Shown here piece after piece: positions 2,083 through 60,042 of a stretch of 64,000 nucleotides of DNA. A program made the translations under genes and the position numbers. Where the stretch lies: assembly GCA_018302225.1 (NCBI GenBank), contig JAGVZY010000007.1, forward strand, positions 13,700 to 77,699, read 5' to 3'. The stretch is from Candidatus Woesearchaeota archaeon. Lineage in GTDB: Archaea; Nanobdellota; Nanobdellia; SCGC-AAA011-G17; JAGVZY01. Position 1 is the first letter of the stretch. Every line of letters starts with the position of its first letter. The notes below the pieces were generated by a model that did not search any database, was not told the origin of the DNA, and was given only the letters and a program-made list of their open reading frames with translations.

Positions 2083-3009
2083 ATGAAAATATTAAGTCTT
2101 ATAAAAGGGGCTGAAGCTAAAAAAGTAGCAAAATTATTAAAAACTATTTCTACCAAATCAGCACTAACAAGAAGTACAAATATAAATATTAACAAAACAA
2201 AGTTTAGAATATTTATTAACCTAAAAAACAAAAAAATAAATAATAATCAAGGTGTAGCCGATTTTTTAGAACTTCTAAATCTTCAAGAAAAGATGTTTGA
2301 AGTAGTTGAAGGACTTATAGCCCAAACCTTTTTACAGTTAAATAATCTTTATCCTGAACTAAAACAAGGACAAGGAAAAATTATTCAAACTAAAGTTTAT
2401 TCTATTTTAGTAAATTTAAATTTATATATAAAACAGCTTAATGAAAAAATTGGAGAAGAAAGGAACCTTATAAAGAATGATAATATTAATACTTTGGAAA
2501 AAGTTATTCATGAAGAAATTAAAATATATAAATCAATTGAAGCACTTGGAACATCAAAACTAGAAAACATCCAGGAGATTAGACAAAATCTTACTGCTTG
2601 TATAAATTCAACCAATAATGGGGAATCTATTGAAAGAATTTGTGCAAATACAGGGGCTATTCTCTTAGGAATAGGTGCTATTTTTACTATTTTCCAAGGA
2701 ATCTATCAAACAGCCACATTTAATTTTGTGGTTAAGCCGATATTTACAGGATATTTACCCTACGTTGATGATTGCGAGTGTGCTATTCTTGAAAATGGGG
2801 GGATCATCCCTCAACAACCAGAAATAGTCGGTGGATTTGTTAGAGGTTTACCCAATCAATGTTTGCCAAATCAATTAGGTAAATTAATTTTAATTTTATC
2901 TGCCACGGGATTAATTTTCTTAAGTATAAAATATTTAAGTAATATTTCTAAAGTTTTAAATTATTCAGATATGGATAAAAGAGTTGATAGAATAAGAAAA
3001 AGATATTAA
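2083..3009 (+). CDS. hypothetical protein; helical N-terminal region, two C-terminal TM helices flanking a Cys-containing loop
   Basis: ORF with hydrophobic segments AILLGIGAIFTIF and LILILSATGLIFL; no family recognised. Confidence 0.4.
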   Translation: MKILSLIKGAEAKKVAKLLKTISTKSALTRSTNININKTKFRIFINLKNKKINNNQGVADFLELLNLQEKMFEVVEGLIAQTFLQLNNLYPELKQGQGKIIQTKVYSILVNLNLYIKQLNEKIGEERNLIKNDNINTLEKVIHEEIKIYKSIEALGTSKLENIQEIRQNLTACINSTNNGESIERICANTGAILLGIGAIFTIFQGIYQTATFNFVVKPIFTGYLPYVDDCECAILENGGIIPQQPEIVGGFVRGLPNQCLPNQLGKLILILSATGLIFLSIKYLSNISKVLNYSDMDKRVDRIRKRY

Positions 3010-3014
3010 ATTCT

Positions 3015-3386
3015 CTAAAATAATGATGCTTCTTGATTTAGATTCATAACTAAATTATATAATCTACCCCCATTAGGTGCAAAATGATATCTAACTTTTT
3101 TTCCTTTAAATGTTTCTTCTTTATATGCTCCTAAACTAACTATATATTCCAACAATTCTAGTTCCTTATCATCAGCTAAGCACATATTAGGTAAATAAAG
3201 TTTAGGACGAATACGCAATTTATTTGAAATGTTGTATTTTCTTGAATTAGTTAATTTCACTCTACCCATATTAAAATAAAAATCTCTAGCAAGAAGTATA
3301 TCTTCCGCATGGATATAATATAAAACATCTAAAGATTTACCTTTACCAACATGTCCCAAATATCCTTTAACTCTATACCAATTCAT
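3015..3386 (-). CDS. hypothetical protein
   Basis: 123-aa ORF, no confident motif. Confidence 0.3.
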   Translation of the reverse strand: MNWYRVKGYLGHVGKGKSLDVLYYIHAEDILLARDFYFNMGRVKLTNSRKYNISNKLRIRPKLYLPNMCLADDKELELLEYIVSLGAYKEETFKGKKVRYHFAPNGGRLYNLVMNLNQEASLF

Positions 3387-3490
3387 AAACTAACAACCAA
3401 GTTTTACAATTTTAAATACTTTCGATTTCGTATCTAATAAGTAGTATCAACTCGATAGTTTTATAAATCTAATATATTAAAAAAGAAAAT

Positions 3491-4093
3491 ATGAAATTAG
3501 GCACAAAAATCTTAACTTATGTAGCTGCAGGTTGGTTATTACTAAATCCAAATAATTTCAATTCAGAAAATAAGCCACAACAATTATCTGATTTAGAACA
3601 AAAAGTAGAAGAAATAGTTAAAAAACAAGAGCGTGTAATAGTAATTGATAAATCTGATTTTTTACTTTATTATTATAATAATGGAAAAGTTGAAGACAAA
3701 TATACTGTTGCAATAGGGAAAAATACTTCTGGAAAAAATAAATCAAAAATAGGAGATAATCTAACTCCTGAAGGCATATTTAAAATCCAAGAAAAATCAA
3801 AAATAGATGAAAATTATTTAGGCAAATATAAAACAGATTTAATAAGGGAATTAGAATATTCATTATTTAACATAATAAGAAGTCCATTTGGAACAAGGTG
3901 GATGCGTTTAAAATCTCAAAGTTATAAGGGATTTAAAACCCCTGATTGGAAAGGTATTGGGATACACGGGTTAAGACATAGTCCAAAGATATTTAAATAT
4001 CAAACAGAAGGATGTGTTGGACTTAACGTCAAAGATGCTCAAAAGTTATACAATAAAGTTGATATTGGTGATTATGTTATAATTAAACCTTAA
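3491..4093 (+). CDS. exported L,D-transpeptidase (YkuD) catalytic-domain protein
   Basis: N-terminal hydrophobic signal/anchor. C-terminal GIHG...(17 aa)...TEGCVGL matches the L,D-transpeptidase His/Cys active-site signature. Confidence 0.7.
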   Translation: MKLGTKILTYVAAGWLLLNPNNFNSENKPQQLSDLEQKVEEIVKKQERVIVIDKSDFLLYYYNNGKVEDKYTVAIGKNTSGKNKSKIGDNLTPEGIFKIQEKSKIDENYLGKYKTDLIRELEYSLFNIIRSPFGTRWMRLKSQSYKGFKTPDWKGIGIHGLRHSPKIFKYQTEGCVGLNVKDAQKLYNKVDIGDYVIIKP

Positions 4094-5878
4094 TTATAAA
4101 TTTGCATGAGTTCTAAGAACTATACGTGGTTCTAATATAAAATTTTTTGATAAATTGTCAATTCTATCACCTTTATCAGAATTTAAAAGAGGTGAATGAA
4201 ATAAGTGAGCTATTAAAGGGGTCTTCCCATCAAACCCTACAACTAAAACCACGTGAGTGAAATCTTGTCCTGCCTTTTGTGCAAGAGGTAAATACTTGCT
4301 CATCCTGTATCTTACTCCAATAATATCTCCTTTCTTAAGAAGAGAATAATCTAAATCACCAGTACCTTTCCAAATTACTTTACCCCCTTTAGCTAAAATA
4401 TTTGCAGGCATATGCCAAGCATTACCATAAACCCCATTTTTTTGTGCTGAACTAGAACCATACATTTTTTCATAAGCCATTTTTACATAACCAGCACATA
4501 CCACTTCAGAAGATTTAAAATCCATATAAGATATATCTCCTGTATCTTTGTTAATAATTATTTTAGATGCTAAATCTGGATTTGACTTCAAACTTTCAAC
4601 AGAAGCAGTATCTTCCTTAAGCAAATAACCATAAGTAGAATAACCTTTTTGAGCAAATCCCGCACCAGCAAAAACAGAGGTAACTAATACTGCTGTAGCC
4701 ACAGCTTTCTTAAATCTACTACTAAACATACCAATTCTTTTAACATCTTGATGAAGTTGCTTTTCCTCAATCTTTAATTCTTTAATCTCTTTCTTTTCTA
4801 CTTTCTCAACTTTTAATTCAAATTCTTTTTCAAAACTTCTAATTAATAATTCTAATTCTTTTTTATATTCATCAAATTCTTCAATTCGTTTAGATGCTTG
4901 CTGAACTTTAATTTTATTTTTTTCATTTTCTTTAATCCTTTCCTGTTCAACAATAAATTGTTTATAAAAATCTTTTAATTCTTGTTTAATCATTTCTAAT
5001 TCTCTATACTTATCTTTCTGCATTACTGCTGATTCTATAATCATATGATTTGCTATATCTACCCTACTAATACAAACCTGTATAAGTTCCTTAAACTGAG
5101 TCTCAAAATAAGAAAGTCCTCTTATAACCTCAAAAGCAACATTTTGATCTATCTTTTTATTATCTTTTAAAGAAATAAATCTCTTTTCTAATTGTTGGAT
5201 TTGTGAAATTATCCACTGAACTTTTCCATTTATTTGTTGTTTAGACTTAGCTCTATTCTTTAAATGAGTAACTAAAGCATAATCAGTTTCTAAATTAGGG
5301 TTAATTTTATCAAATTCTAATCCTATACTTTTAAAATATTTAAAATCATTTTCTATAAACTGAATTGTTCTTCCAATTAGAGATTCATATTCTTTTTCTA
5401 TTCCTAATAAAATCATTTGAATTTTTCCAGCAGTAGTTTTATCTAATTGAATTCCTTTCATAACTACTTTTAACCTATTAATAAACTCCTCAAAAATAGT
5501 TAAAGGTTGTCTAATATCATACATTAATTCTAAATCTTCATCTTCAATTAATTTTTTAAGAGAATTTATTATTTTTACAATATCATAAATTTGTTTTCTT
5601 AATTGCTTTTCATAGCTTCTTATGTCTTTAACAGAAGTTCTTTCTATACTTTTCATTGTGTTAAAATCTAATTCATTAACTCTTTCTAATGCTTTTTGTA
5701 AGCTTATAATTTCATTCCGATTCTTAATTCTTGATTGCTTGACTTTTTGATAGTCATATTCAAATCCACCTATTAAATTAGAAATCCGCTGATCTGTATT
5801 AGTAATTGTTTTTGGATTTAAAATTTGATCAGCTAATATAGTATTACTTAACTTTAACTTTAAACCAAATAAGTCCAT
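4094..5878 (-). CDS. membrane-anchored protein: about 380 aa cytoplasmic coiled coil, one TM helix, C-terminal papain-fold (NlpC/P60/CHAP-like) putative peptidase/amidase domain
   Basis: Long K/E-rich heptad-like N-terminal part and TM segment AVATAVLVTSVFAGAGFA. C-terminal region has Cys (EVVCAGYV) ... GDIIGV ... His (THVVLVVGF) in the spacing of NlpC/P60-type Cys-His hydrolases. Confidence 0.45.
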   Translation of the reverse strand: MDLFGLKLKLSNTILADQILNPKTITNTDQRISNLIGGFEYDYQKVKQSRIKNRNEIISLQKALERVNELDFNTMKSIERTSVKDIRSYEKQLRKQIYDIVKIINSLKKLIEDEDLELMYDIRQPLTIFEEFINRLKVVMKGIQLDKTTAGKIQMILLGIEKEYESLIGRTIQFIENDFKYFKSIGLEFDKINPNLETDYALVTHLKNRAKSKQQINGKVQWIISQIQQLEKRFISLKDNKKIDQNVAFEVIRGLSYFETQFKELIQVCISRVDIANHMIIESAVMQKDKYRELEMIKQELKDFYKQFIVEQERIKENEKNKIKVQQASKRIEEFDEYKKELELLIRSFEKEFELKVEKVEKKEIKELKIEEKQLHQDVKRIGMFSSRFKKAVATAVLVTSVFAGAGFAQKGYSTYGYLLKEDTASVESLKSNPDLASKIIINKDTGDISYMDFKSSEVVCAGYVKMAYEKMYGSSSAQKNGVYGNAWHMPANILAKGGKVIWKGTGDLDYSLLKKGDIIGVRYRMSKYLPLAQKAGQDFTHVVLVVGFDGKTPLIAHLFHSPLLNSDKGDRIDNLSKNFILEPRIVLRTHANL

Positions 5879-5913
5879 AAAATTAAGAACATTTAAGGAA
5901 TATATAAACTTTT

Positions 5914-6247: not shown

Positions 6248-6673
6248 TTAAATTTTATCTTCAGAAGGGTTTTTAAATGTTTCTAAATGTTCAAATAGAC
6301 TTTCTAAAGAATTTCCTAAATTTCGATTACCTCCATAAATAGACTTTATAGTCTTTATGGGGTCTAAATTCTCTCCTGAATTATCAACTTTTTCAAGCTT
6401 TAAATTATAAAAAAAGCCAAAAACTCCATCTCTTAAACTTCTCTGATTAAACATAGCACTAATACTTTTTGGAAACCTTAAAACTAATCTAGTTAATCCC
6501 TCATCTTTTAGTTCAAAACCATCCATTACATAAATATTGCCTCCAGCAAAATTTCCACCAAAAATCTTTAAAGAATAAATTGAACCTTTTTTTAAAGAAT
6601 ACATTTTCTTAATAGATTTTTTAAATTTATAATCATTAGGTTCATACTCCAGAATTAAAATATAATTAATCAT
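6248..6673 (-). CDS. hypothetical protein inserted between tuf and rps10
   Basis: 141-aa ORF with normal codon usage, tightly packed between conserved neighbours; no motif recognised. Confidence 0.35.
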   Translation of the reverse strand: MINYILILEYEPNDYKFKKSIKKMYSLKKGSIYSLKIFGGNFAGGNIYVMDGFELKDEGLTRLVLRFPKSISAMFNQRSLRDGVFGFFYNLKLEKVDNSGENLDPIKTIKSIYGGNRNLGNSLESLFEHLETFKNPSEDKI

Positions 6674-8270: not shown

Positions 8271-8855
8271 ATGCAAAATACAGAAGAAATCTTTGAAACA
8301 GTAATGCACTGGGGAAATGAAGCTAAATATAATCATTCAAACTTTCCAGATATAATAACAAATAAAGACAAAATTAGAGGTTTCTTTATAGGAACAAGTT
8401 ATAAAAAAGAAGAAAATAGAAATAATCTTGATTTAATTTCTTTTCTTAAACCTATTACAATATATTCAGACCTTTTTATACAAAATGAAGTATTTGATAA
8501 AGCTAAAGATATAACAGAACTTTTCAAAGATTATTCTCCAAAAAGCCAAGTTAAAATAGAGATGGAATCTTTTTTTATAAATGTTGTAAAAATGGGAATA
8601 TATATTACAGGCTGTTTAACTGAAATCCCTGAATCTATTGTTTTAAAAAGTGAAAACAACTCAAATAAACAAAAAATAGAAGAATTATTCAACATTTTTA
8701 ATTATTTTTCTTCATTAACTTACCTTAACTATAAGATGAAAAATTCAAAAACCCCCGTAATTGCTTTATTAAATCATGAAAATGTGAAAAAACCTTATGT
8801 TTATGAAAATCTTTTTGATAAAGATAATTTAGTTCTAAGACTTTGGAGAGAATAA
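8271..8855 (+). CDS. hypothetical protein, antisense insertion between fusA and tuf
   Basis: 194-aa ORF, no motif recognised. Confidence 0.4.
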   Translation: MQNTEEIFETVMHWGNEAKYNHSNFPDIITNKDKIRGFFIGTSYKKEENRNNLDLISFLKPITIYSDLFIQNEVFDKAKDITELFKDYSPKSQVKIEMESFFINVVKMGIYITGCLTEIPESIVLKSENNSNKQKIEELFNIFNYFSSLTYLNYKMKNSKTPVIALLNHENVKKPYVYENLFDKDNLVLRLWRE

Positions 8856-14286: not shown

Positions 14287-14358
14287 GGCGGTGATAGTTC
14301 ATTGGTAGAATGCGGGCCTGTGGAGCCTGGGAGCCGAGTTCGATTCTCGGTCACCGCC
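14287..14358 (+). tRNA. tRNA-His (anticodon GTG) with genomically encoded G-1 pairing C73 (8-bp acceptor stem)
   Basis: Manual fold: G-1 + GCGGTGA/TCACCGC acceptor, U8A9, D stem GTTC/GAAT, anticodon stem CGGGC/GCCTG with loop CTGTGGA, T arm CCGAG-TTCGATT-CTCGG, discriminator C. No encoded CCA. Confidence 0.8.
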
Positions 14359-14366
14359 CTAAAAAT

Positions 14367-15608
14367 ATGATACAAAAACAAAAAGGAACAAGAGATTTTT
14401 ATCCAGAAGAAAAACGTACTCAAAACTATATTTTTGAAATCTGGAAATCAGTTGCAGAATCTTTCGGTTATGAAGAAATAAATGGTCCAACAATGGAGCC
14501 AATAGATTTGTACAAAAAATCCGGTTCTGAAATTCCTGAACAAATTTATACTTTAAAAGATAAATCAGATAATGAATTTGCTCTACGTCCAGAATTAACT
14601 CCAACTATAGCAAGAATGATTTCTCAAAAACAAGGAATTAAAAGACCCATAAAATGGTATGCAATTCCAGATTGTTACAGATACGAAGCACCTCAATCAG
14701 GAAGATTAAGACAATTTGCACAATTTAATTTAGATTTACTTGGAACAGAAACTACAACTTCTGATGCAGAAGTCATCACCGTTTTAGTTGAACTACTAAA
14801 AGCATTTGGATTTACAAAAAATGATGTGTTTGTAAGAATTTCAAATAGAAAGGTCATAGAATCATTCTTAGATTATCTAACAATTTCAAACAAAAAAGAA
14901 ATTGCAAAACTAATTGATAAATACGATAAATTATCTCCAGAAGGATTTCAAGAATCTCTTACAGAATTAATTGGATCTAAAAAAGCACAAGAAATAAGTT
15001 CATTCTTAAAAATAAGAAATATTTCAGATATTAAATTTGATTTTGATGAAAAAGGAAAACAAGGATTAAAGGAATTAAACGAACTATTTACAAAATTAAA
15101 AGCATTCGGAGTTTTAGAATATTGTAGACTTGATTTAAGTATTATGCGTGGATTTGATTATTACACAGGAACAATCTTTGAAGCTTATGATACTAATAAA
15201 AAATTCAGAGCCTTAGCAGGTGGTGGAAGATATGATAATTTAGTTGATTTCTTAGGCGGAGAACCCTGTCCAGGAATAGGATTTGGTATGGGTGATGTTA
15301 TCTTGGAACTATTATTACAATCTAAAAATAAACTTCCACAGTTAAAAAAAGAAATAAAATATTACATTGCGCCTGTTAATGATTTTGTGCTCAATACAGC
15401 AATAGAAATTGCTCAAAAACTAAGAAAATATAACAATGTTGAGCTCGAAGTTACTTCAAGAAAACTTTCTAAACAATTTGAATATGCTTCTGAAATAGGT
15501 GCAGAAAAGATAGTTATTGTTGGTGAAAAAGACTTAGAAAACAAACAAGTAACAATTAGAGATTTAGAAAATGGTAAAGAAGAAAAAGTAAATATAAAAA
15601 ATTTGTGA
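14367..15608 (+). CDS. hisS: histidyl-tRNA synthetase
   Basis: GTRDFYPEE motif, class II motifs 2 and 3 (FRALAGGGRYD), C-terminal anticodon-binding domain. Start moved to ATG 14367 because the ORF-track start at 14310 overlaps the tRNA. Confidence 0.9.
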   Translation: MIQKQKGTRDFYPEEKRTQNYIFEIWKSVAESFGYEEINGPTMEPIDLYKKSGSEIPEQIYTLKDKSDNEFALRPELTPTIARMISQKQGIKRPIKWYAIPDCYRYEAPQSGRLRQFAQFNLDLLGTETTTSDAEVITVLVELLKAFGFTKNDVFVRISNRKVIESFLDYLTISNKKEIAKLIDKYDKLSPEGFQESLTELIGSKKAQEISSFLKIRNISDIKFDFDEKGKQGLKELNELFTKLKAFGVLEYCRLDLSIMRGFDYYTGTIFEAYDTNKKFRALAGGGRYDNLVDFLGGEPCPGIGFGMGDVILELLLQSKNKLPQLKKEIKYYIAPVNDFVLNTAIEIAQKLRKYNNVELEVTSRKLSKQFEYASEIGAEKIVIVGEKDLENKQVTIRDLENGKEEKVNIKNL

Positions 15609-20735: not shown

Positions 20736-21182
20736 TTAATTAGTATTTGTGGCTCTTTTTTCAGAAGTAGAAACCTTAAATGATTTCCTAAAATAATTCA
20801 TATATAAACCCATTGTTGGACCTATTAGAGGAGATAATAAAGCTAAGTTTTTGTATCCTTTTATCATTTTATTAAAGTTTAATTCTCCATCTTGAACTAA
20901 ACCACCAATTCCTACTGCAAGCCCATATATTGGAACCTGAAATATATTAAATGCCACTAAGTCTACGAGATATTTTTTAATTTTAGAACTTTTTTCAGTT
21001 GTTTTTGTTTTTTTATATAAAAAATCTCTCCACAACCCATAAGGCCCCCCAGTAACACTATTCATTAACGTAGCCGAAGCCCTTGAACCAATTATTCCTT
21101 TAAGAGTTTTTAATCCAGTATAATAATCTAATCCTGCACCCAATATTAAAGAATAACTTATACTCCCTAAAGTATCAACCAA
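20736..21182 (-). CDS. hypothetical membrane protein
   Basis: 148-aa ORF, Gly-rich hydrophobic segments. Confidence 0.35.
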   Translation of the reverse strand: MVDTLGSISYSLILGAGLDYYTGLKTLKGIIGSRASATLMNSVTGGPYGLWRDFLYKKTKTTEKSSKIKKYLVDLVAFNIFQVPIYGLAVGIGGLVQDGELNFNKMIKGYKNLALLSPLIGPTMGLYMNYFRKSFKVSTSEKRATNTN

Positions 21183-27710: not shown

Positions 27711-27842
27711 CCCATCCTAGCTCAATGGTAGAGCACTCGGCTGTAGCTTTAGAGCGCAGGCAAAGTTAATGTCCAAAAGACTAACAATGAAGACCTGACA
27801 GCCGATACCGAGTGGTTCCTGGTTCGAGTCCGGGGGATGGGA
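27711..27842 (+). tRNA. tRNA-Tyr (anticodon GTA) with 60-nt intron (27747-27806) at the canonical 37/38 position; C1:G72 base pair
   Basis: Manual fold: acceptor CCCATCC/GGATGGG, D arm GCTC-AATGGTA-GAGC, anticodon stem CTCGG/CCGAG interrupted by 60 nt after CTGTAG, T arm CCTGG-TTCGAGT-CCGGG, discriminator A. Confidence 0.75.
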
Positions 27843-39401: not shown

Positions 39402-39634
39402 ACAAATTTTCCACTCAATTTGCTTTATTAAGATTATTATTCTCTATTAGCTACTTTCAACAATATAAAAAAGTAGAAAACGACATAATTTGGTTATATA
39501 ATCTACCGTTTTCTAGTTAATAAATAACTTAATTCTTTTTATATCTTAATTTAAAAGCATTTGATATTATAATTTACTTAAGTCGTTTACTAAAGAATAT
39601 AAACCTTTATAAATATCATTAAAAATGTATAATC

Positions 39635-40461: not shown

Positions 40462-41584
40462 AATGGTAAACAAAATATTAACTGGTGCAGAAACCAGTGC
40501 AGAAGCAATGCGTCAAATAGCCCCAGATGTAGTTTCAGCCTATCCTATCACTCCTCAAACCCATATAATTGAAAAATTCTCAGAATTTATTGCAGATGGT
40601 TTAATAGACACAGAATTGATTAGAGTAGAATCAGAACATAGTGCCCTAAGTGCTTGTGTTGGTGCTTCAGCAACAGGTGCAAGAACAATGACTGCAAGCT
40701 CATCAGCAGGCTTAGCCTTAATGTTTGAAATATTAGGAGTTACCTCGGGATTAAGACTTCCAGTAATTATGAACATTACAAATAGAGCATTATCTTCACC
40801 AATAAATATTCATTGTGATCATTCAGATTCTATGAATTGCAGAGATTCTGGTTGGATTCAAATATATTCTGAAAACTGTCAAGAAGTTTATGATTTCAAT
40901 TTAATAGCAGTAAAACTTGCAGAGTCGATAAATCTTCCAGTAATGATCATGCAAGATGGTTTTATTGTTTCTCATGGTGTGGAAAATTTATGCATTCTAG
41001 AAGACAAAAAAGCAAAATTATTTATAGGAAATTATAAACCAAAGTTTTCTTTACTTGAATTTAAAAAACCGAAAACCTTTGGTGCCTTACAACTAACAGA
41101 CTATAATTTTGAAACAAAAATTCAAATTTCGCAAGCAATGGAAAAAGCAAAACAAAAATATTTAGAAATTTCAAAAGCATATTCAAAAATCTCAGGAAGA
41201 AATTATAATTTCTTTGAATATTATGGAAATAAAAATACAAAAGATGTAATTGTGGCTTTATCTTCAACAGCAGGAACAATAAAAAGTATGATTGATGAAG
41301 GTTTAAATCTTGCCCTATTAAAAATTAACTTATTTAGACCATTCCCCCATGAAGAAATAAAAAATATTCTAAAAGATAAAAAAAGAATTATAATCTTAGA
41401 TCGTTCAGAAAGCTATGGTTCTTATCCACCCCTATATTCAGAAATCAAATCTGCACTTTATGATCTAAAAGAAAAACCTGAATTAATAAGTCATGTATTT
41501 GGAATTGGTGGAAGAGAAATTTACAAACAAGATATAAAAAATATTTTAAATAATTCAAAAAAATATATAGGTGTAAGAGAATGA
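40454..41584 (+). CDS. porA: POR alpha subunit
   Basis: Full-length match to POR alpha pattern; overlapping starts/stops with neighbours. Confidence 0.85.
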   Translation: MNKMVNKILTGAETSAEAMRQIAPDVVSAYPITPQTHIIEKFSEFIADGLIDTELIRVESEHSALSACVGASATGARTMTASSSAGLALMFEILGVTSGLRLPVIMNITNRALSSPINIHCDHSDSMNCRDSGWIQIYSENCQEVYDFNLIAVKLAESINLPVMIMQDGFIVSHGVENLCILEDKKAKLFIGNYKPKFSLLEFKKPKTFGALQLTDYNFETKIQISQAMEKAKQKYLEISKAYSKISGRNYNFFEYYGNKNTKDVIVALSSTAGTIKSMIDEGLNLALLKINLFRPFPHEEIKNILKDKKRIIILDRSESYGSYPPLYSEIKSALYDLKEKPELISHVFGIGGREIYKQDIKNILNNSKKYIGVRE

Positions 41585-43623
41585 AAGATTTAACAATAAA
41601 AGAACTGGCTCAAAAGGATACTCAGTTTATATCAGGGCATAGAGCTTGTGCGGGGTGTGCATTCCCAATTATCGTGAAAACTATTCTCGCATCAACAGAT
41701 AAAAAAGTAGTTGTCTGTGCTGCAACAGGTTGTTTAGAAGTTGTCTCAACAATTTACCCTTATTCTTCATGGAAAGTTCCATTTATTCACAGTGCATTTG
41801 AAAATGCAGGTGCAACAATTTCAGGTGTAGAAACTGCATTTAAAGCATTAAAGAAAAAGGATCCAAAATTAAAAAAAGAAGACGTTAAATTCATTGCCTT
41901 TGCTGGAGACGGTGGATCTTACGACATTGGACTTCAGTCTTTATCAGGAACATTAGAACGTGGGCATGATATAGTATTTGTAGTTTATGACAATGAAGCT
42001 TATATGAATTGTCTAAGCTTAGATAGCCTAATTATGACTAAAGAAGGGTTAAAAAAAGTAATGGATGTTAAAGTTGGAGAATTGATCTATGCTTTTGATG
42101 AAAATGCTCATAAACTGATTACTAAAAAATGTATAGGTAAATTTAATAATGGTATTAAAAAAGTGTATGAACTTAACACATTTCATCATTCAATAAAAAC
42201 AACAGATAATCACCCTTTTCTAATATTAAAACGAAATGGGCGAGGTAAAAAAGCTCAATTTATTTGGAAGAAATTAAAAGATTTAAAAGTAGGCAATGAA
42301 ATTATAACTTTAAAGAAAATAAATAATGAAAAAAGTTTCAGTTTTGATAAAATAAAAATATCTAAAAAAGGAGATTACAAAGTAAATAAAATAAATGAGA
42401 TAAATTTACCAAAAATAAGTTCTACAAATTTAATGGAATTTTTAGGATTATATATGGGCGATGGATGGATAAGAGAATCTAAGGCAGAAGTAGGTTTTGC
42501 ACTACCCCGCAATAAAAAAGGGCGCGAGAGGTTAATAACTCTCTATAAAAAAATATTTAATATATCGCTTAAACCAAAAGATAAAAACTATGTTTATATT
42601 TATTCTTTAAATTTAGTAAGATTTATAGAATCTTTAAAATTTAATAAAGGTGCAAAAAATAAAATAGTGCCTGCTTGGATATTCACTCTGCCACTTAAAG
42701 AAAAAGAAGCTTTTATACAAGGATTAATGCTTTCAGATGGATATCAAATAAAAAATAGTAAAAGATATATATCTGCGAGCATCGATCTTTTAAAAACCTT
42801 AAGATTACTTCTGCAAACCTGCAATTATAGAGTAGGAAAAATACATTTACAAAAAAAATTAAAAGGAACGCATGTAGTTTATAGAAAATTGTTAAAAGAT
42901 TCTACTTATGGTTATATCTGTTTTAGTAAAAAAAAGAGGTTATTAATTGATAAATATATCTCTCAAACAAAACAAAAAGACTTTTTTGCAGGAAATAAAA
43001 ATTTTGGAACTGAAAAAATAATTTCTATTAAATTTATAAAAGAAGAATCAACAATTGATTTAAGTGTTGAAGGAGCACATAATTTTATAGCCGACGGAAT
43101 TGTAGTCCACAATACAGGGGTTCAAGGATCAAGTTCAACTCCTTTCGGTGCTACAACTACAACAACACCAGATGGAAAAATTCATCATGGTAAAGAACAA
43201 ATCAAAAAGAATTTAATGGAAATTGTAATCGCACATAAAATACCTTATGCTGCACAAGCAAGTGTCTTTGATTTGGAAGATCTTTCAAGAAAAGCAAAAA
43301 AAGCATTTGAAACAAAAGGCCCTAGTTTCTTAAATGTTTTATCACCCTGTAATTTAGGTTGGAAACATCCACCAAACATAACAATTACAATTGCAAAACT
43401 AGCAACAGAAACAAATTTCTGGCCATTATATGAATATGAAAATGGAAATTATATCTTAAATTATAAACCACAAATTCAAAAGAGTGTAAATTCTTATTTA
43501 AGACTTCAAGGTAGATTTAAGCACCTTTTTAAACCAGAAAATAACTTACTTCTTGAAAAACTGCAAAAATCAACTGATGAACAGTGGGAAAAACTGTTAA
43601 AAGTCTCTAAAAACCTTAAATAA
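41581..43623 (+). CDS. porB: POR beta subunit (TPP-binding) interrupted by a 368-aa intein
   Basis: CAGCAFP cluster-ligand motif, GDG-x25-N TPP motif; exteins sum to about 312 aa, typical PorB size. Confidence 0.85.
   Translation: MKDLTIKELAQKDTQFISGHRACAGCAFPIIVKTILASTDKKVVVCAATGCLEVVSTIYPYSSWKVPFIHSAFENAGATISGVETAFKALKKKDPKLKKEDVKFIAFAGDGGSYDIGLQSLSGTLERGHDIVFVVYDNEAYMNCLSLDSLIMTKEGLKKVMDVKVGELIYAFDENAHKLITKKCIGKFNNGIKKVYELNTFHHSIKTTDNHPFLILKRNGRGKKAQFIWKKLKDLKVGNEIITLKKINNEKSFSFDKIKISKKGDYKVNKINEINLPKISSTNLMEFLGLYMGDGWIRESKAEVGFALPRNKKGRERLITLYKKIFNISLKPKDKNYVYIYSLNLVRFIESLKFNKGAKNKIVPAWIFTLPLKEKEAFIQGLMLSDGYQIKNSKRYISASIDLLKTLRLLLQTCNYRVGKIHLQKKLKGTHVVYRKLLKDSTYGYICFSKKKRLLIDKYISQTKQKDFFAGNKNFGTEKIISIKFIKEESTIDLSVEGAHNFIADGIVVHNTGVQGSSSTPFGATTTTTPDGKIHHGKEQIKKNLMEIVIAHKIPYAAQASVFDLEDLSRKAKKAFETKGPSFLNVLSPCNLGWKHPPNITITIAKLATETNFWPLYEYENGNYILNYKPQIQKSVNSYLRLQGRFKHLFKPENNLLLEKLQKSTDEQWEKLLKVSKNLK
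42010..43113 (+). mobile_element. intein with LAGLIDADG homing endonuclease, inserted right after the conserved Asn of the PorB TPP motif (...YDNEAYMN|C...VVHN|TG...)
   Basis: N-terminal Cys, C-terminal His-Asn followed by Thr. Two LAGLIDADG motifs: LGLYMGDGWI and IQGLMLSDGYQI. Confidence 0.8.
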
Positions 43624-59040: not shown

Positions 59041-59619
59041 ATGATAATTGGATTAACAGGAACTATCGGCTCTGGAAAAGGAGATTTAGCAAGATACTTA
59101 GAAAATAAAGGTTTTCAAAGAATAGTTTTCTCAGATATTTTAAAAGATGAATTAATTAAAAGAGGAATAGAAATAACTAGAGAAAATTTGCAATTGATGG
59201 GAGATGAATTTAGAAAACAAGGAGATTTAAATGTACTTGCAAGAAAACTTTTAGAAAAAATAACCAGAGAAAATGTGGTCTTAGATGGAATAAGAAATCC
59301 TGGTGAAGTTGATTATCTTAAAAAAAATTCACGATTTGTTTTAATAGGCATAGATGCAGATGAACACACAAGGTTTGAAAGAACAATTTCAAGAGGAGAT
59401 GCTAGAGATCCTAAAACTTATAGAGAATTTAGAGAACGTGACGAAAAAGACAGACGTAGTATTAATCCAGAAGGCCAACAAGTCGATTTATGTTTACAAC
59501 AAGCAGATTATAAAATCTTTAATAACACAACAATAGAAGAGTTTCACGCTCAAATAGAAAGCGTTCTAATCCAAATTAAAAATAAGAAATATCAGCATAC
59601 AGGCGCCGATGAATATTGA
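59041..59619 (+). CDS. P-loop nucleotide kinase, dephospho-CoA kinase (CoaE)-like
   Basis: IGLTGTIGSGKG Walker A at the N-terminus in CoaE-like context. Confidence 0.4.
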   Translation: MIIGLTGTIGSGKGDLARYLENKGFQRIVFSDILKDELIKRGIEITRENLQLMGDEFRKQGDLNVLARKLLEKITRENVVLDGIRNPGEVDYLKKNSRFVLIGIDADEHTRFERTISRGDARDPKTYREFRERDEKDRRSINPEGQQVDLCLQQADYKIFNNTTIEEFHAQIESVLIQIKNKKYQHTGADEY

Positions 59620-60042
59620 AGCATCTGCCAAATTAAATACAGGAAACATCCAAATACTGATATAATCTCTTACATAGCCATAAACAACCCTATCGACCAG
59701 ATTAGCTATTGTTCCAGCAAACAATAAAATCAAAGATAAATTAAATAATTTTTTGTGTTTACTGCTTACTATTTTCTTAACAAATTTATATTTTAATATT
59801 TCATTTAGATAAATATAACATAACAATAAGATTATTGCAAATATAATAGAACAAATAATAATTCCAACTAAATGCCCTTCAAACAATCCAAATAAAGCCC
59901 CCCCATTTTTTAAATAAGTAAATAATAGCAAATCTTTATTATAAAAAAGATTTTTAAAAATAAAATCAAAAATAAAAACAAAAAAAGTAATTAAAATTAG
60001 AATAGGAAATTTATATAATTTAGTTCTGAAATTATTTACCAT
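59566..60042 (-). CDS. lspA: lipoprotein signal peptidase (signal peptidase II)
   Basis: NGGALFG and NLVDRVVYGYVRDYISIW..FPVFNLADASIFIGA match the LspA catalytic-Asp motifs; four TM helices. Confidence 0.8.
   Translation of the reverse strand: MVNNFRTKLYKFPILILITFFVFIFDFIFKNLFYNKDLLLFTYLKNGGALFGLFEGHLVGIIICSIIFAIILLLCYIYLNEILKYKFVKKIVSSKHKKLFNLSLILLFAGTIANLVDRVVYGYVRDYISIWMFPVFNLADASIFIGACMLIFLIFNLD

Follow-up and report, generated by a model that had tools for sequence, protein, structure and literature searches.

A convergent gene pair of a Woesearchaeota archaeon encodes a YkuD enzyme without the transpeptidase Arg and a divergent NlpC/P60-like peptidase with a predicted role on bacterial peptidoglycan

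The window (the whole 64-kb stretch of DNA that was analysed) contains two adjacent, convergent genes whose stop codons abut, with 0 bp between them. ORF A (positions 3491-4093, forward strand) encodes a putatively exported YkuD-fold enzyme of 200 residues, which is identical to an NCBI protein (P0001) labelled as L,D-transpeptidase of Candidatus Woesearchaeota archaeon, and ORF B (4094-5878, reverse strand) encodes a predicted type-II membrane protein of 594 residues, present at NCBI under the same source as the hypothetical protein MBS3166798.1. An earlier note on this DNA had described two convergent proteins with a shared end and signatures of peptidoglycan-active enzymes; both reading frames and the motifs that it quoted were recovered, and its overall interpretation is supported. 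The signals behind this gene pair far exceed chance. The host of the pair is an archaeon, since the window contains an archaeal RNase P RNA, the translation genes of EF-1alpha, EF-2, S10, S7 and S12, and genes encoding the thermosome, the proteasome, FttA and RtcB, and the NCBI name agrees with this. No murein-synthesis gene was found within the 64 kb, no peptide transporter adjoins the pair, and FtsEX genes were not seen near it.

ORF A and ORF B are separately promoted. A TATA-like box (TTTATAAA, 3460-3467, forward strand) begins 31 nt ahead of the start codon of ORF A, and the ORF A mRNA is probably leaderless, with this box as its promoter. The box of ORF B (TTTATATA, 5901-5908, reverse strand) starts 30 nt upstream of its start codon, in the 35-nt gap that follows the rps10 gene on the same strand. 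The TATA-like octamers have their maximum between -29 and -32, where 17 of the 66 window genes carry one, compared with a background frequency of 0.0015 per nt, and the genome-typical distance of the ORF B box argues for an own promoter; read-through from rps10, 35 nt away on the same strand, was considered and may occur beside it. A secreted short isoform starting at Met384, suggested by the likeness of the membrane span to a signal peptide with the terminus AGFA|Q, is not supported, as no TATA-like box lies about 30 nt upstream.

ORF A matches the Pfam YkuD model (PF03734) with an E-value of 2.7e-23 and 83.6 bits, above the gathering cut-off of 23.4. Its catalytic domain (residues 48-198, 3632-4084, forward strand) contains the motifs GIGIHG, with His159 (codon 3965-3967), and TEGCVGL, with Cys175 (codon 4013-4015); both residues are invariant in an 18-sequence alignment and show the spacing of about 15-17 residues of the YkuD fold. 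The N-terminal hydrophobic segment ILTYVAAGWLLLN (residues 7-19, 3509-3547, forward strand) is the top Kyte-Doolittle window of the protein and would be a signal peptide or signal anchor; the archaeal relatives likewise begin with a hydrophobic segment, and ORF A is predicted to be exported. The previous description as an exported L,D-transpeptidase stands for the YkuD fold and the His/Cys pair; the transpeptidase Arg at Cys+2 is missing. L,D-transpeptidases proper carry Arg or Asn at this position of the [S/T]HGCh[R/N] motif, while ORF A has Gly (T-E-G-C-V-G), the archaeal neighbour YkuDs show C-I-G, C-V-G, C-I-H and C-I-E, and the bacterial relatives carry Ser (C-I-S). Since this Arg is missing from DpaA-like amidases/proteins and from L,D-carboxypeptidases (PMC8263019), the Gly at Cys+2 suggests that ORF A would be an Arg-less, hydrolase-type YkuD enzyme, like DpaA or Csd6/Pgp2. 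ORF A resembles E. coli DpaA (YafK/LdtF), Csd6 and Pgp2 in being a small, single-domain, putatively exported YkuD protein with His and Cys and no Arg at Cys+2, and JGI gives the label YafK to its nearest relatives in bacteria. Identity to the bacterial relatives is only 26-33%, and the archaeal clade differs from them in an insertion of about 20 residues (the ENYLGKYKTDLIRELEYSLFN region) and in a Glu that replaces the usual residue ahead of Gly-Cys. To our knowledge archaea have no Lpp, so the substrate of DpaA is missing from the producer.

ORF B consists, on the reverse strand, of an N-terminal helical, heptad-periodic domain (residues 1-388, 4715-5878), a single membrane span (389-409, 4652-4714) and a divergent NlpC/P60-like cysteine peptidase domain (410-594, 4097-4651). 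The span, FKKAVATAVLVTSVFAGAGFA, is the lone hydrophobic span of the protein (Kyte-Doolittle 19-residue maximum of 1.6), and the three K/R on its N-side suggest an N-in/C-out topology, with the N-terminal domain inside and the peptidase domain outside; an N-terminal signal peptide was not found in ORF B. The claim that both proteins face outside is consistent with the single span, the K/R bias and the N-terminal segment of ORF A, at the level of a prediction, and the coiled coil of about 380 residues ahead of the anchor was borne out. The first 380 residues contain just 3 Pro and show a 3.5-residue hydrophobic periodicity (power 1.78 versus 0.23 +/- 0.23 in shuffled sequences, a value reached by one of 1000 shuffles), and the coiled coil should be cytoplasmic because it precedes the only membrane span. 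The N-terminal domain has no match in Pfam or NCBIfam, its PDB matches are GCN4-type coiled coils only, and its only homologues (phmmer E 7e-38 and 1.7e-12) are P0058 and P0062, full-length orthologues of ORF B with 31% (E 2e-100) and 28% identity. It is unrelated to the neighbouring 308-aa membrane protein and to the N-termini of P0059 and P0061, which are shorter. In another locus (L011), ORF B looks split into 402 aa and 211 aa, but this is an artefact of a scaffold gap, with an N run and mis-joined sequence. In CwlO, PcsB and RipC, which are controlled by FtsEX, the coiled coil is extracellular, follows a signal peptide and contacts FtsX, whereas that of ORF B stands before its only span, and no sequence similarity between them was detected; ORF B does not have the arrangement of FtsEX hydrolases.

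The C-terminal domain of ORF B shows no match to NLPC_P60 (PF00877) or CHAP (PF05257), even up to E 1, so the profile searches proposed in the earlier note failed here, and no peptidoglycan-binding domain is recognisable in ORF B with Pfam. Its homologues came from exhaustive search only; word-index searches with the domain and with the family profile retrieved nothing, or one protein. Among 39 relatives only sub-threshold Pfam matches were found, to Peptidase_C92 (nine), Amidase_6 (four), CHAP (four) and NLPC_P60 (two), all confined to the NlpC/P60 clan. The structure search that had also been proposed gave CHAP and NlpC/P60 matches with Foldseek against PDB and BFVD, but weak ones (E 1e-3 or higher), and a single-sequence AlphaFold2 model (pLDDT 36) was set aside. 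Cys461 (codon 4496-4498, reverse strand), Gly517-Asp518, His542 (4253-4255) and His558 (4205-4207) are invariant or nearly so in a 39-sequence alignment, and 75 full-length relatives all share both His and conserve the Cys to at least 90%; the Cys...GD...His pattern that had been seen after the membrane anchor is thus present, and its catalytic residues are retained among the homologues. The domain shows a papain-like alpha+beta fold, in which the Cys sits at the N-terminal end of a helix that lies against a His-bearing beta-sheet. It also follows the non-permuted order of the NlpC/P60 superfamily, where Cys comes first, then His, then another polar residue, here again His; hhalign pairs the family Cys and first His with their counterparts in MepS. 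Membership in Peptidase_C92 (YaeF/YiiX permuted amidase) was rejected because the Cys precedes the His residues in the ORF B family, and the match to YiiX (2if6) requires two separate, order-swapped segments. The nearest known kind is that of the NlpC/P60 (MEROPS C40) DL-endopeptidases T. vaginalis NlpC1 (6bim) and E. coli MepS, with B. subtilis LytE/CwlO and E. faecium SagA as further members, and the domain appears to be a divergent, previously unrecognised NlpC/P60 relative (clan CA, MEROPS C40 and relatives).

The 75 relatives show as partner domains PG_binding_1 (19), DUF1615 (13), PG_binding_3 (five), SLT (four) and LysM (three), and further GH3, SH3_3 and Phage_lysozyme. As relatives are fused to PG_binding_1, SLT, DUF1615, LysM and GH3, the ORF B domain would cleave murein stem peptides, for example at the gamma-D-Glu-mDAP bond; the NlpC/P60 superfamily also includes enzymes that act on other amide bonds. 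The NlpC/P60-like family is present in several archaeal lineages, and one archaeal contig carries a protein with SLT, the NlpC/P60-like domain and DUF1615 (P0075). A search with a three-sequence alignment retrieved only Woesearchaeota SO_2017_GW3_46 in genome contigs, and two already known lineages and a 96%-identical strain variant in metagenomes; a single-protein scan of the genome contigs found no related locus. For relatives with PG_binding_1, the domain and an SLT-like region, tblastn against 50,697 phage records gave no match, and a phage origin for them is not supported. A YkuD gene adjoins the NlpC/P60-like domain gene in the window and in SO_2017_GW3_46, where the flanking genes differ, and it also adjoins a gene encoding LysM, the domain and DUF1615, and a gene encoding GH3 and the domain. 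This adjacency extends over four architectures, with different flanks and YkuD members just 26-38% identical. No YkuD neighbour was found within the contigs of P0062, P0059, P0061 and P0060, and the two closest YkuD relatives of ORF A (L001 and L002) show no NlpC/P60-like domain nearby. The suggestion that the convergent pair is a functional unit gains from the recurrent adjacency, but it does not extend to the four related loci without YkuD.

Woesearchaeota and Pacearchaeota have been proposed to attack or bind bacterial walls via large murein transglycosylase proteins (PMC8204110, PMC9723730). ORF B shares with these proteins (fam00969 of Castelle et al. 2021, AR20 and the Lake A MAGs) the lineage and the presumed target, and at least one of them, P0075, contains its NlpC/P60-like domain, a peptidase domain that the published descriptions consulted do not mention. 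Unlike them, ORF B is much smaller and membrane-tethered, contains a cytoplasmic domain by prediction, and shows no glycan-cleaving or wall-binding domain. Both proteins also resemble the modular peptidoglycan hydrolases of bacteria-killing archaea (PLoS Biol 2025, PMC12352652), prominent in Nanoarchaeota (DPANN), in being archaeal, putatively exported and presumably murein-directed. That survey required a Pfam catalytic domain and a Pfam wall-binding domain, and ORF B would have been missed by it because neither is recognisable by Pfam in ORF B.

The reading that we favour, with a modest balance of probability on its side, is that of a two-enzyme module at the outer face of the Woesearchaeota membrane which would cut the stem peptides of bacterial peptidoglycan. 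The bond targeted by ORF A would be the one at the L-centre of stem residue three, for instance to strip tetrapeptides of their terminal D-Ala or of any other group bound at that position. ORF B, anchored in the archaeal membrane through its single span, would display its peptidase (Cys461-His542-His558) outside and cut inside the stem, typically at the gamma-D-Glu-diamino-acid bond, whichever of the two reactions would come first. The conserved 388-residue helical domain in the cytoplasm probably serves to oligomerise the enzyme or to set its position from within, and because ORF B is tethered it would reach only wall that touches the archaeon, so its activity would be limited to cell-cell contact or to fragments close to the surface. 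The substrate would be bacterial, since no murein synthesis is known for this archaeon; this comes from the literature, in which DPANN archaea are described as murein-less (PMC8204110), and not from the 64 kb of genome in the window. Of the targets suggested in the earlier note, the wall of a host or partner cell, here a bacterial one, is preferred to pseudomurein. Against this, a tethered enzyme would have to pass any archaeal S-layer, and in diderm bacteria the outer membrane, to reach the murein.

The same biochemistry would also serve scavenging, in which the pair trims soluble muropeptides or debris of dead bacterial walls near the surface, not breaching a living host, and feeds D/L-Ala, Glu and diaminopimelate or Lys to a metabolically reduced archaeon; this is a real but minor possibility. 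Bacteria trim and recycle stem peptides by the same logic, an L,D-carboxypeptidase and then a DL-peptidase (Pgp2 and after it Pgp1, as cited in PMC8263019). Published work reports muramoyltetrapeptide carboxypeptidases as abundant in Pacearchaeota and proposes that dead-cell peptidoglycan supplies amino acids (PMC11537232), and ORF B is without a wall-binding domain. However, a membrane tether with a large conserved cytoplasmic domain makes an elaborate arrangement for a simple nutrient hydrolase, the relatives carry fused domains of the lysin type that bind walls and cleave glycans, and the pair has no adjoining peptide transporter. It is doubtful, though conceivable, that ORF B is the outward blade of a contact-site apparatus, assembled or positioned from the archaeal interior by its cytoplasmic helical domain, which with the YkuD enzyme would open or remodel host murein where the cells touch; at its boldest, this reading has YkuD covalently linking an archaeal surface protein to host stem peptides. 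That the pair works on the envelope of the archaeon itself, for example by maturing or turning over its S-layer, further surface peptides or a wall polymer with peptides that is still to be described, is improbable, because YkuD chemistry requires an L,D-peptide bond and we know of none in archaeal envelopes. Every detectable partner domain of the family binds or cleaves bacterial murein, murein-synthesis genes are absent from the window and DPANN archaea are described as murein-less (PMC8204110). Such a role would fit the position of both genes amid housekeeping genes with native archaeal promoters, the anchoring of ORF B in the membrane of its producer, and a cytoplasmic domain that could link it to growth or division. 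Pseudomurein of a methanogen partner (Methanobacteriales or Methanopyrales) is a very improbable target, as it is made of L-amino acids only and hence has no L,D bond for YkuD, the domains fused to the relatives (SLT, LysM, PG_binding_1 and GH3) are directed at murein, and the Pei enzymes (PeiW/PeiP/PeiR) are not the closest relatives, PeiR ranking 52nd, well below 18 NlpC/P60 murein hydrolases. That the two genes are chance neighbours with unrelated roles is scarcely credible: their convergence, their own promoters and the several related loci without the partner gene would allow it, but the adjacency recurs as described above, and by a rough estimate chance alone would place a YkuD gene directly beside a given gene with a frequency well below 1%.

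For most DPANN archaea there is neither a cultured representative nor a known host, and the evidence for interaction of Woesearchaeota and Pacearchaeota with bacteria has so far come mainly from large SLT-domain proteins. The module favoured here, as a conserved enzyme pair, offers a concrete handle on how such tiny, wall-less archaea deal with bacteria. New are a divergent NlpC/P60 peptidase family, missed by current Pfam models and also located inside at least one large SLT protein; its recurrent pairing with a YkuD enzyme that lacks the Arg, an arrangement that points to stem peptides of peptidoglycan being attacked in two defined steps; and the unusual design predicted for ORF B, with a cytoplasmic helical domain, a single span and a peptidase outside. 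Pfam-based surveys of archaeal peptidoglycan hydrolases will have undercounted such enzymes. Both soluble domains are small and easily expressed, so the choice between murein, pseudomurein and self substrates can be answered experimentally. The contact-site version, if true, would be the first molecular mechanism for episymbiosis of an archaeon on a bacterium.

The locus of ORF A and ORF B lies in DNA of low G+C (about 26-33% in the window), which encodes archaeal EF-1alpha, EF-2, S10, S7 and S12, as well as thermosome, a proteasome subunit, FttA, RtcB and Rpo7, and contains an archaeal RNase P RNA. ORF A (3491-4093, + strand, 200 aa) and ORF B (4094-5878, - strand, 594 aa) have exactly the coordinates assigned in the earlier note and, as described there, are convergent with abutting stop codons. 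The identical NCBI proteins are named "L,D-transpeptidase [Candidatus Woesearchaeota archaeon]" and "hypothetical protein J4403_01155" (MBS3166798.1), respectively. The locus was recovered in assemblies of many groundwater samples. In one of them (L011, 6319-8117) ORF B is split into genes of 402 and 211 aa; the break falls at a run of N and some 50 nt of wrongly joined sequence, and is a scaffolding artefact rather than a natural variant. Four ORFs flanking the pair show no Pfam match: 2083-3009 (+), 3015-3386 (-), 6248-6673 (-) and 8271-8855 (+). Of these, the 308-aa ORF is helical in its N-terminal part, with two hydrophobic spans in the C-terminal part. None of the four is kept beside the orthologous pair in contig L003. 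At the window edge, a short ORF (4-261, -) adjoins a 104-aa LAGLIDADG_3 fragment just outside (L010, 6097-6411), which may be what is left of a homing endonuclease.

The full ORF B has no Pfam or NCBIfam match, and a word-indexed homologue search with its C-terminal domain gave no matches. Exhaustive phmmer matched 76 representatives to aa 380-594, 12 of them below E 1e-10. In an alignment of 39 sequences of this family, Cys461, Gly482, Trp488, Gly499, Gly517, His542 and His558 are invariant, including the Cys and His residues expected to be catalytic. AlphaFold2 on the single sequence was unusable (pLDDT 36); with this alignment as input it gave pLDDT 91.6 and pTM 0.89, and the invariant Cys starts a helix while both His are on a beta-hairpin. 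The predicted fold agrees with three sequence-level results: a profile search of the PDB matched Tn916-type NlpC/P60 autolysins at their GD...THVG strand motif; individual family members show sub-threshold Pfam matches only to Peptidase_C92, Amidase_6, CHAP and NLPC_P60; and hhalign to E. coli MepS brought the Cys, the GD motif and the first His into register (probability 79.6%, E 1.5e-5). A permuted YiiX-type domain was ruled out because the Cys precedes the His in the ORF B family, the non-permuted order, in contrast to YiiX. The papain-fold, NlpC/P60-like assignment of the earlier note is supported by the model, the conserved residues and hhalign, although not by a Pfam match of ORF B itself, and the domain is a divergent NlpC/P60-superfamily peptidase that escapes current Pfam models.

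ORF A matches Pfam YkuD (E 2.7e-23) and its His/Cys motif, GIGIHG (His159) and T-x-G-C (Cys175), is invariant in the alignment with its relatives, which bears out its YkuD identity. Its most hydrophobic segment is the N-terminus (aa 7-19) and the archaeal relatives also start with such a segment, so ORF A is likely exported. The nearest relatives are unnamed metagenomic proteins (54% and 44% identity), followed by small bacterial proteins of about 30% identity, labelled YafK by JGI, and one protein from Cnuella takakiae. At Cys+2, ORF A has Gly, the other YkuDs of archaeal context have Gly, His or Glu, and the bacterial relatives have Ser, whereas transpeptidating LDTs have an Arg, which is absent from DpaA-like amidases and L,D-carboxypeptidases (Winkle et al., PMC8263019). 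This one motif suggests that ORF A is a YkuD-fold hydrolase rather than a cross-linking enzyme.

When 75 full-length relatives of the ORF B domain were scanned with Pfam, the partner domains were of one theme only: PG_binding_1 in 19, DUF1615 in 13, PG_binding_3 in five, SLT in four, LysM in three, TPM_phosphatase in two, and Glyco_hydro_3, SH3_3 and Phage_lysozyme in one each. In one relative (P0071), the SLT match is overlapped by DUF1615. The closest relatives are in archaeal gene contexts: P0058, named Woesearchaeota by NCBI, adjoins S4/S13; P0059 adjoins L18e/L13/S9; P0061, the rpoA''-L7Ae-NusA-S12-S7 cluster; P0062, TYW3; and P0075, which combines SLT, the ORF B-type domain and DUF1615, adjoins S8e and LSM. 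Judged from sequence, the ORF B-type peptidase domain belongs to the known murein-degrading toolkit of Woese- and Pacearchaeota; a literature search found no paper joining NlpC, DPANN and peptidoglycan. The short relative P0060, a membrane span plus the domain, is on a contig (L016) that has Shine-Dalgarno-like GGAGG sequences and a Gp49/HTH toxin-antitoxin pair. This contig may be bacterial, and the family therefore probably extends beyond archaea.

The earlier note took the convergent orientation as a sign of a functional unit, but orientation by itself is uninformative. Both genes show a TATA-like octamer 30-31 nt before the ATG; octamers 29-32 nt before an ATG are found, for example, at 3460-3467, 5901-5908 and 39606-39613. 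They occur at -29 to -32 in 17 of the 66 window genes (background 0.0015 per nt), the distance in ORF A and ORF B being the genome-wide mode, and no Shine-Dalgarno spacing was seen among window ORFs, which indicates that mRNAs in this genome are mostly leaderless. Since each has its own octamer at the mode distance, ORF A and ORF B are probably separate, leaderless transcripts. The L003, L022 and L023 promoters show the same archaeal TATA-at-minus-30 layout. What favours a unit is recurrent YkuD adjacency. For the ORF B orthologue P0058 the arrangement is again tail-to-tail: a YkuD gene whose product is 38% identical to ORF A lies 21 nt from it, and the genes flanking that pair are wholly different from those of the window. 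For P0067 (LysM, domain and DUF1615), the adjacent YkuD gene is convergent at a distance of 3 nt; next to P0074 (SH3_3, GH3 and domain) lies a co-directional YkuD gene. The neighbour YkuDs are only 26-38% identical to each other. However, no YkuD neighbour was found at four other ORF B-family loci, nor an ORF B-type domain near the two closest YkuD relatives of ORF A, so the association is frequent but not obligatory.

ORF B shows a single hydrophobic span (aa 389-409) with a K/R excess on its N-side and no N-terminal signal peptide, which should place the catalytic domain on the outside and the first 388 aa in the cytoplasm. Pro and Gly are scarce in this N-terminal part, which shows a significant 3.5-residue hydrophobic periodicity and matches only GCN4-type coiled coils in the PDB, in agreement with the proposed coiled coil of about 380 aa before the anchor. 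Over its whole length, ORF B can be aligned with P0058 (31% identity, E 2e-100) and P0062 (28%), and phmmer restricted to the N-terminal parts gave E values of 7e-38 and 1.7e-12, respectively, so the N-terminal part is a genuine conserved domain. The other 73 family representatives lack it; other archaeal members have an N-terminal extension that is shorter (about 125-165 aa) and unrelated, or just a membrane span. P0062 also shows a lipobox-like L-T-A-C directly after the membrane span, and the window encodes a bacterial-type lipoprotein signal peptidase II (59566-60042, -; Peptidase_A8, E 1.8e-22), which together hint at lipoprotein processing in this lineage.

Elsewhere in the window, the TPP-binding subunit of pyruvate:ferredoxin oxidoreductase (41581-43623, +; 680 aa) contains an intein (Intein_splicing match, aa 158-511) within its TPP_enzyme_C domain. 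An Rfam tRNA at 27711-27842 (+), for which ARAGORN made no call, is 132 nt long on a model of 71 positions, so that it should contain an intron of about 60 nt. tRNA-His(GTG) (14288-14359, +) adjoins its own synthetase gene: it lies directly before the start called mechanically for the histidyl-tRNA synthetase ORF (14310-15608, +) and overlaps that ORF. The gene probably starts farther downstream, as its Pfam match does not begin until aa 26.

The YkuD annotation of ORF A and the idea of murein-degrading proteins in Woese- and Pacearchaeota were already known, and archaea can make peptidoglycan hydrolases (PMC12352652). As far as checked, three elements are new: ORF B and its relatives make up an NlpC/P60 family that has no model of its own and several of whose members lie on archaeal contigs; this family is repeatedly paired with Arg-less YkuD enzymes; and in ORF B a cytoplasmic coiled coil is followed by a membrane span and a peptidase.

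The usual targets of NlpC/P60 enzymes are gamma-D-Glu-diamino-acid or related stem-peptide bonds, and the site of YkuD action is the L-centre of stem residue 3. Action on the archaeon's own envelope is a less likely alternative; the analysis covered 64 kb of the genome, and no murein-synthesis genes are within this window. Pseudomurein remodelling, raised in the earlier note, is disfavoured by its lack of D-amino acids, by the murein-type partner domains of the ORF B family and by the low similarity of PeiR to the domain. An AlaE-family L-alanine exporter homologue (20736-21182, -; E 4.5e-18), unusual for an archaeon, could be relevant if stem peptides release alanine. In the preferred reading, ORF A and ORF B would be a module on the surface of the archaeon that processes the stem peptides of bacterial murein in two steps; candidate purposes are attachment to or entry into a host, killing, and nutrient scavenging. 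The cytoplasmic domain of ORF B could serve in oligomerisation, positioning or control and, because ORF B is membrane-tethered, its activity would be confined to walls or fragments touching the archaeon.
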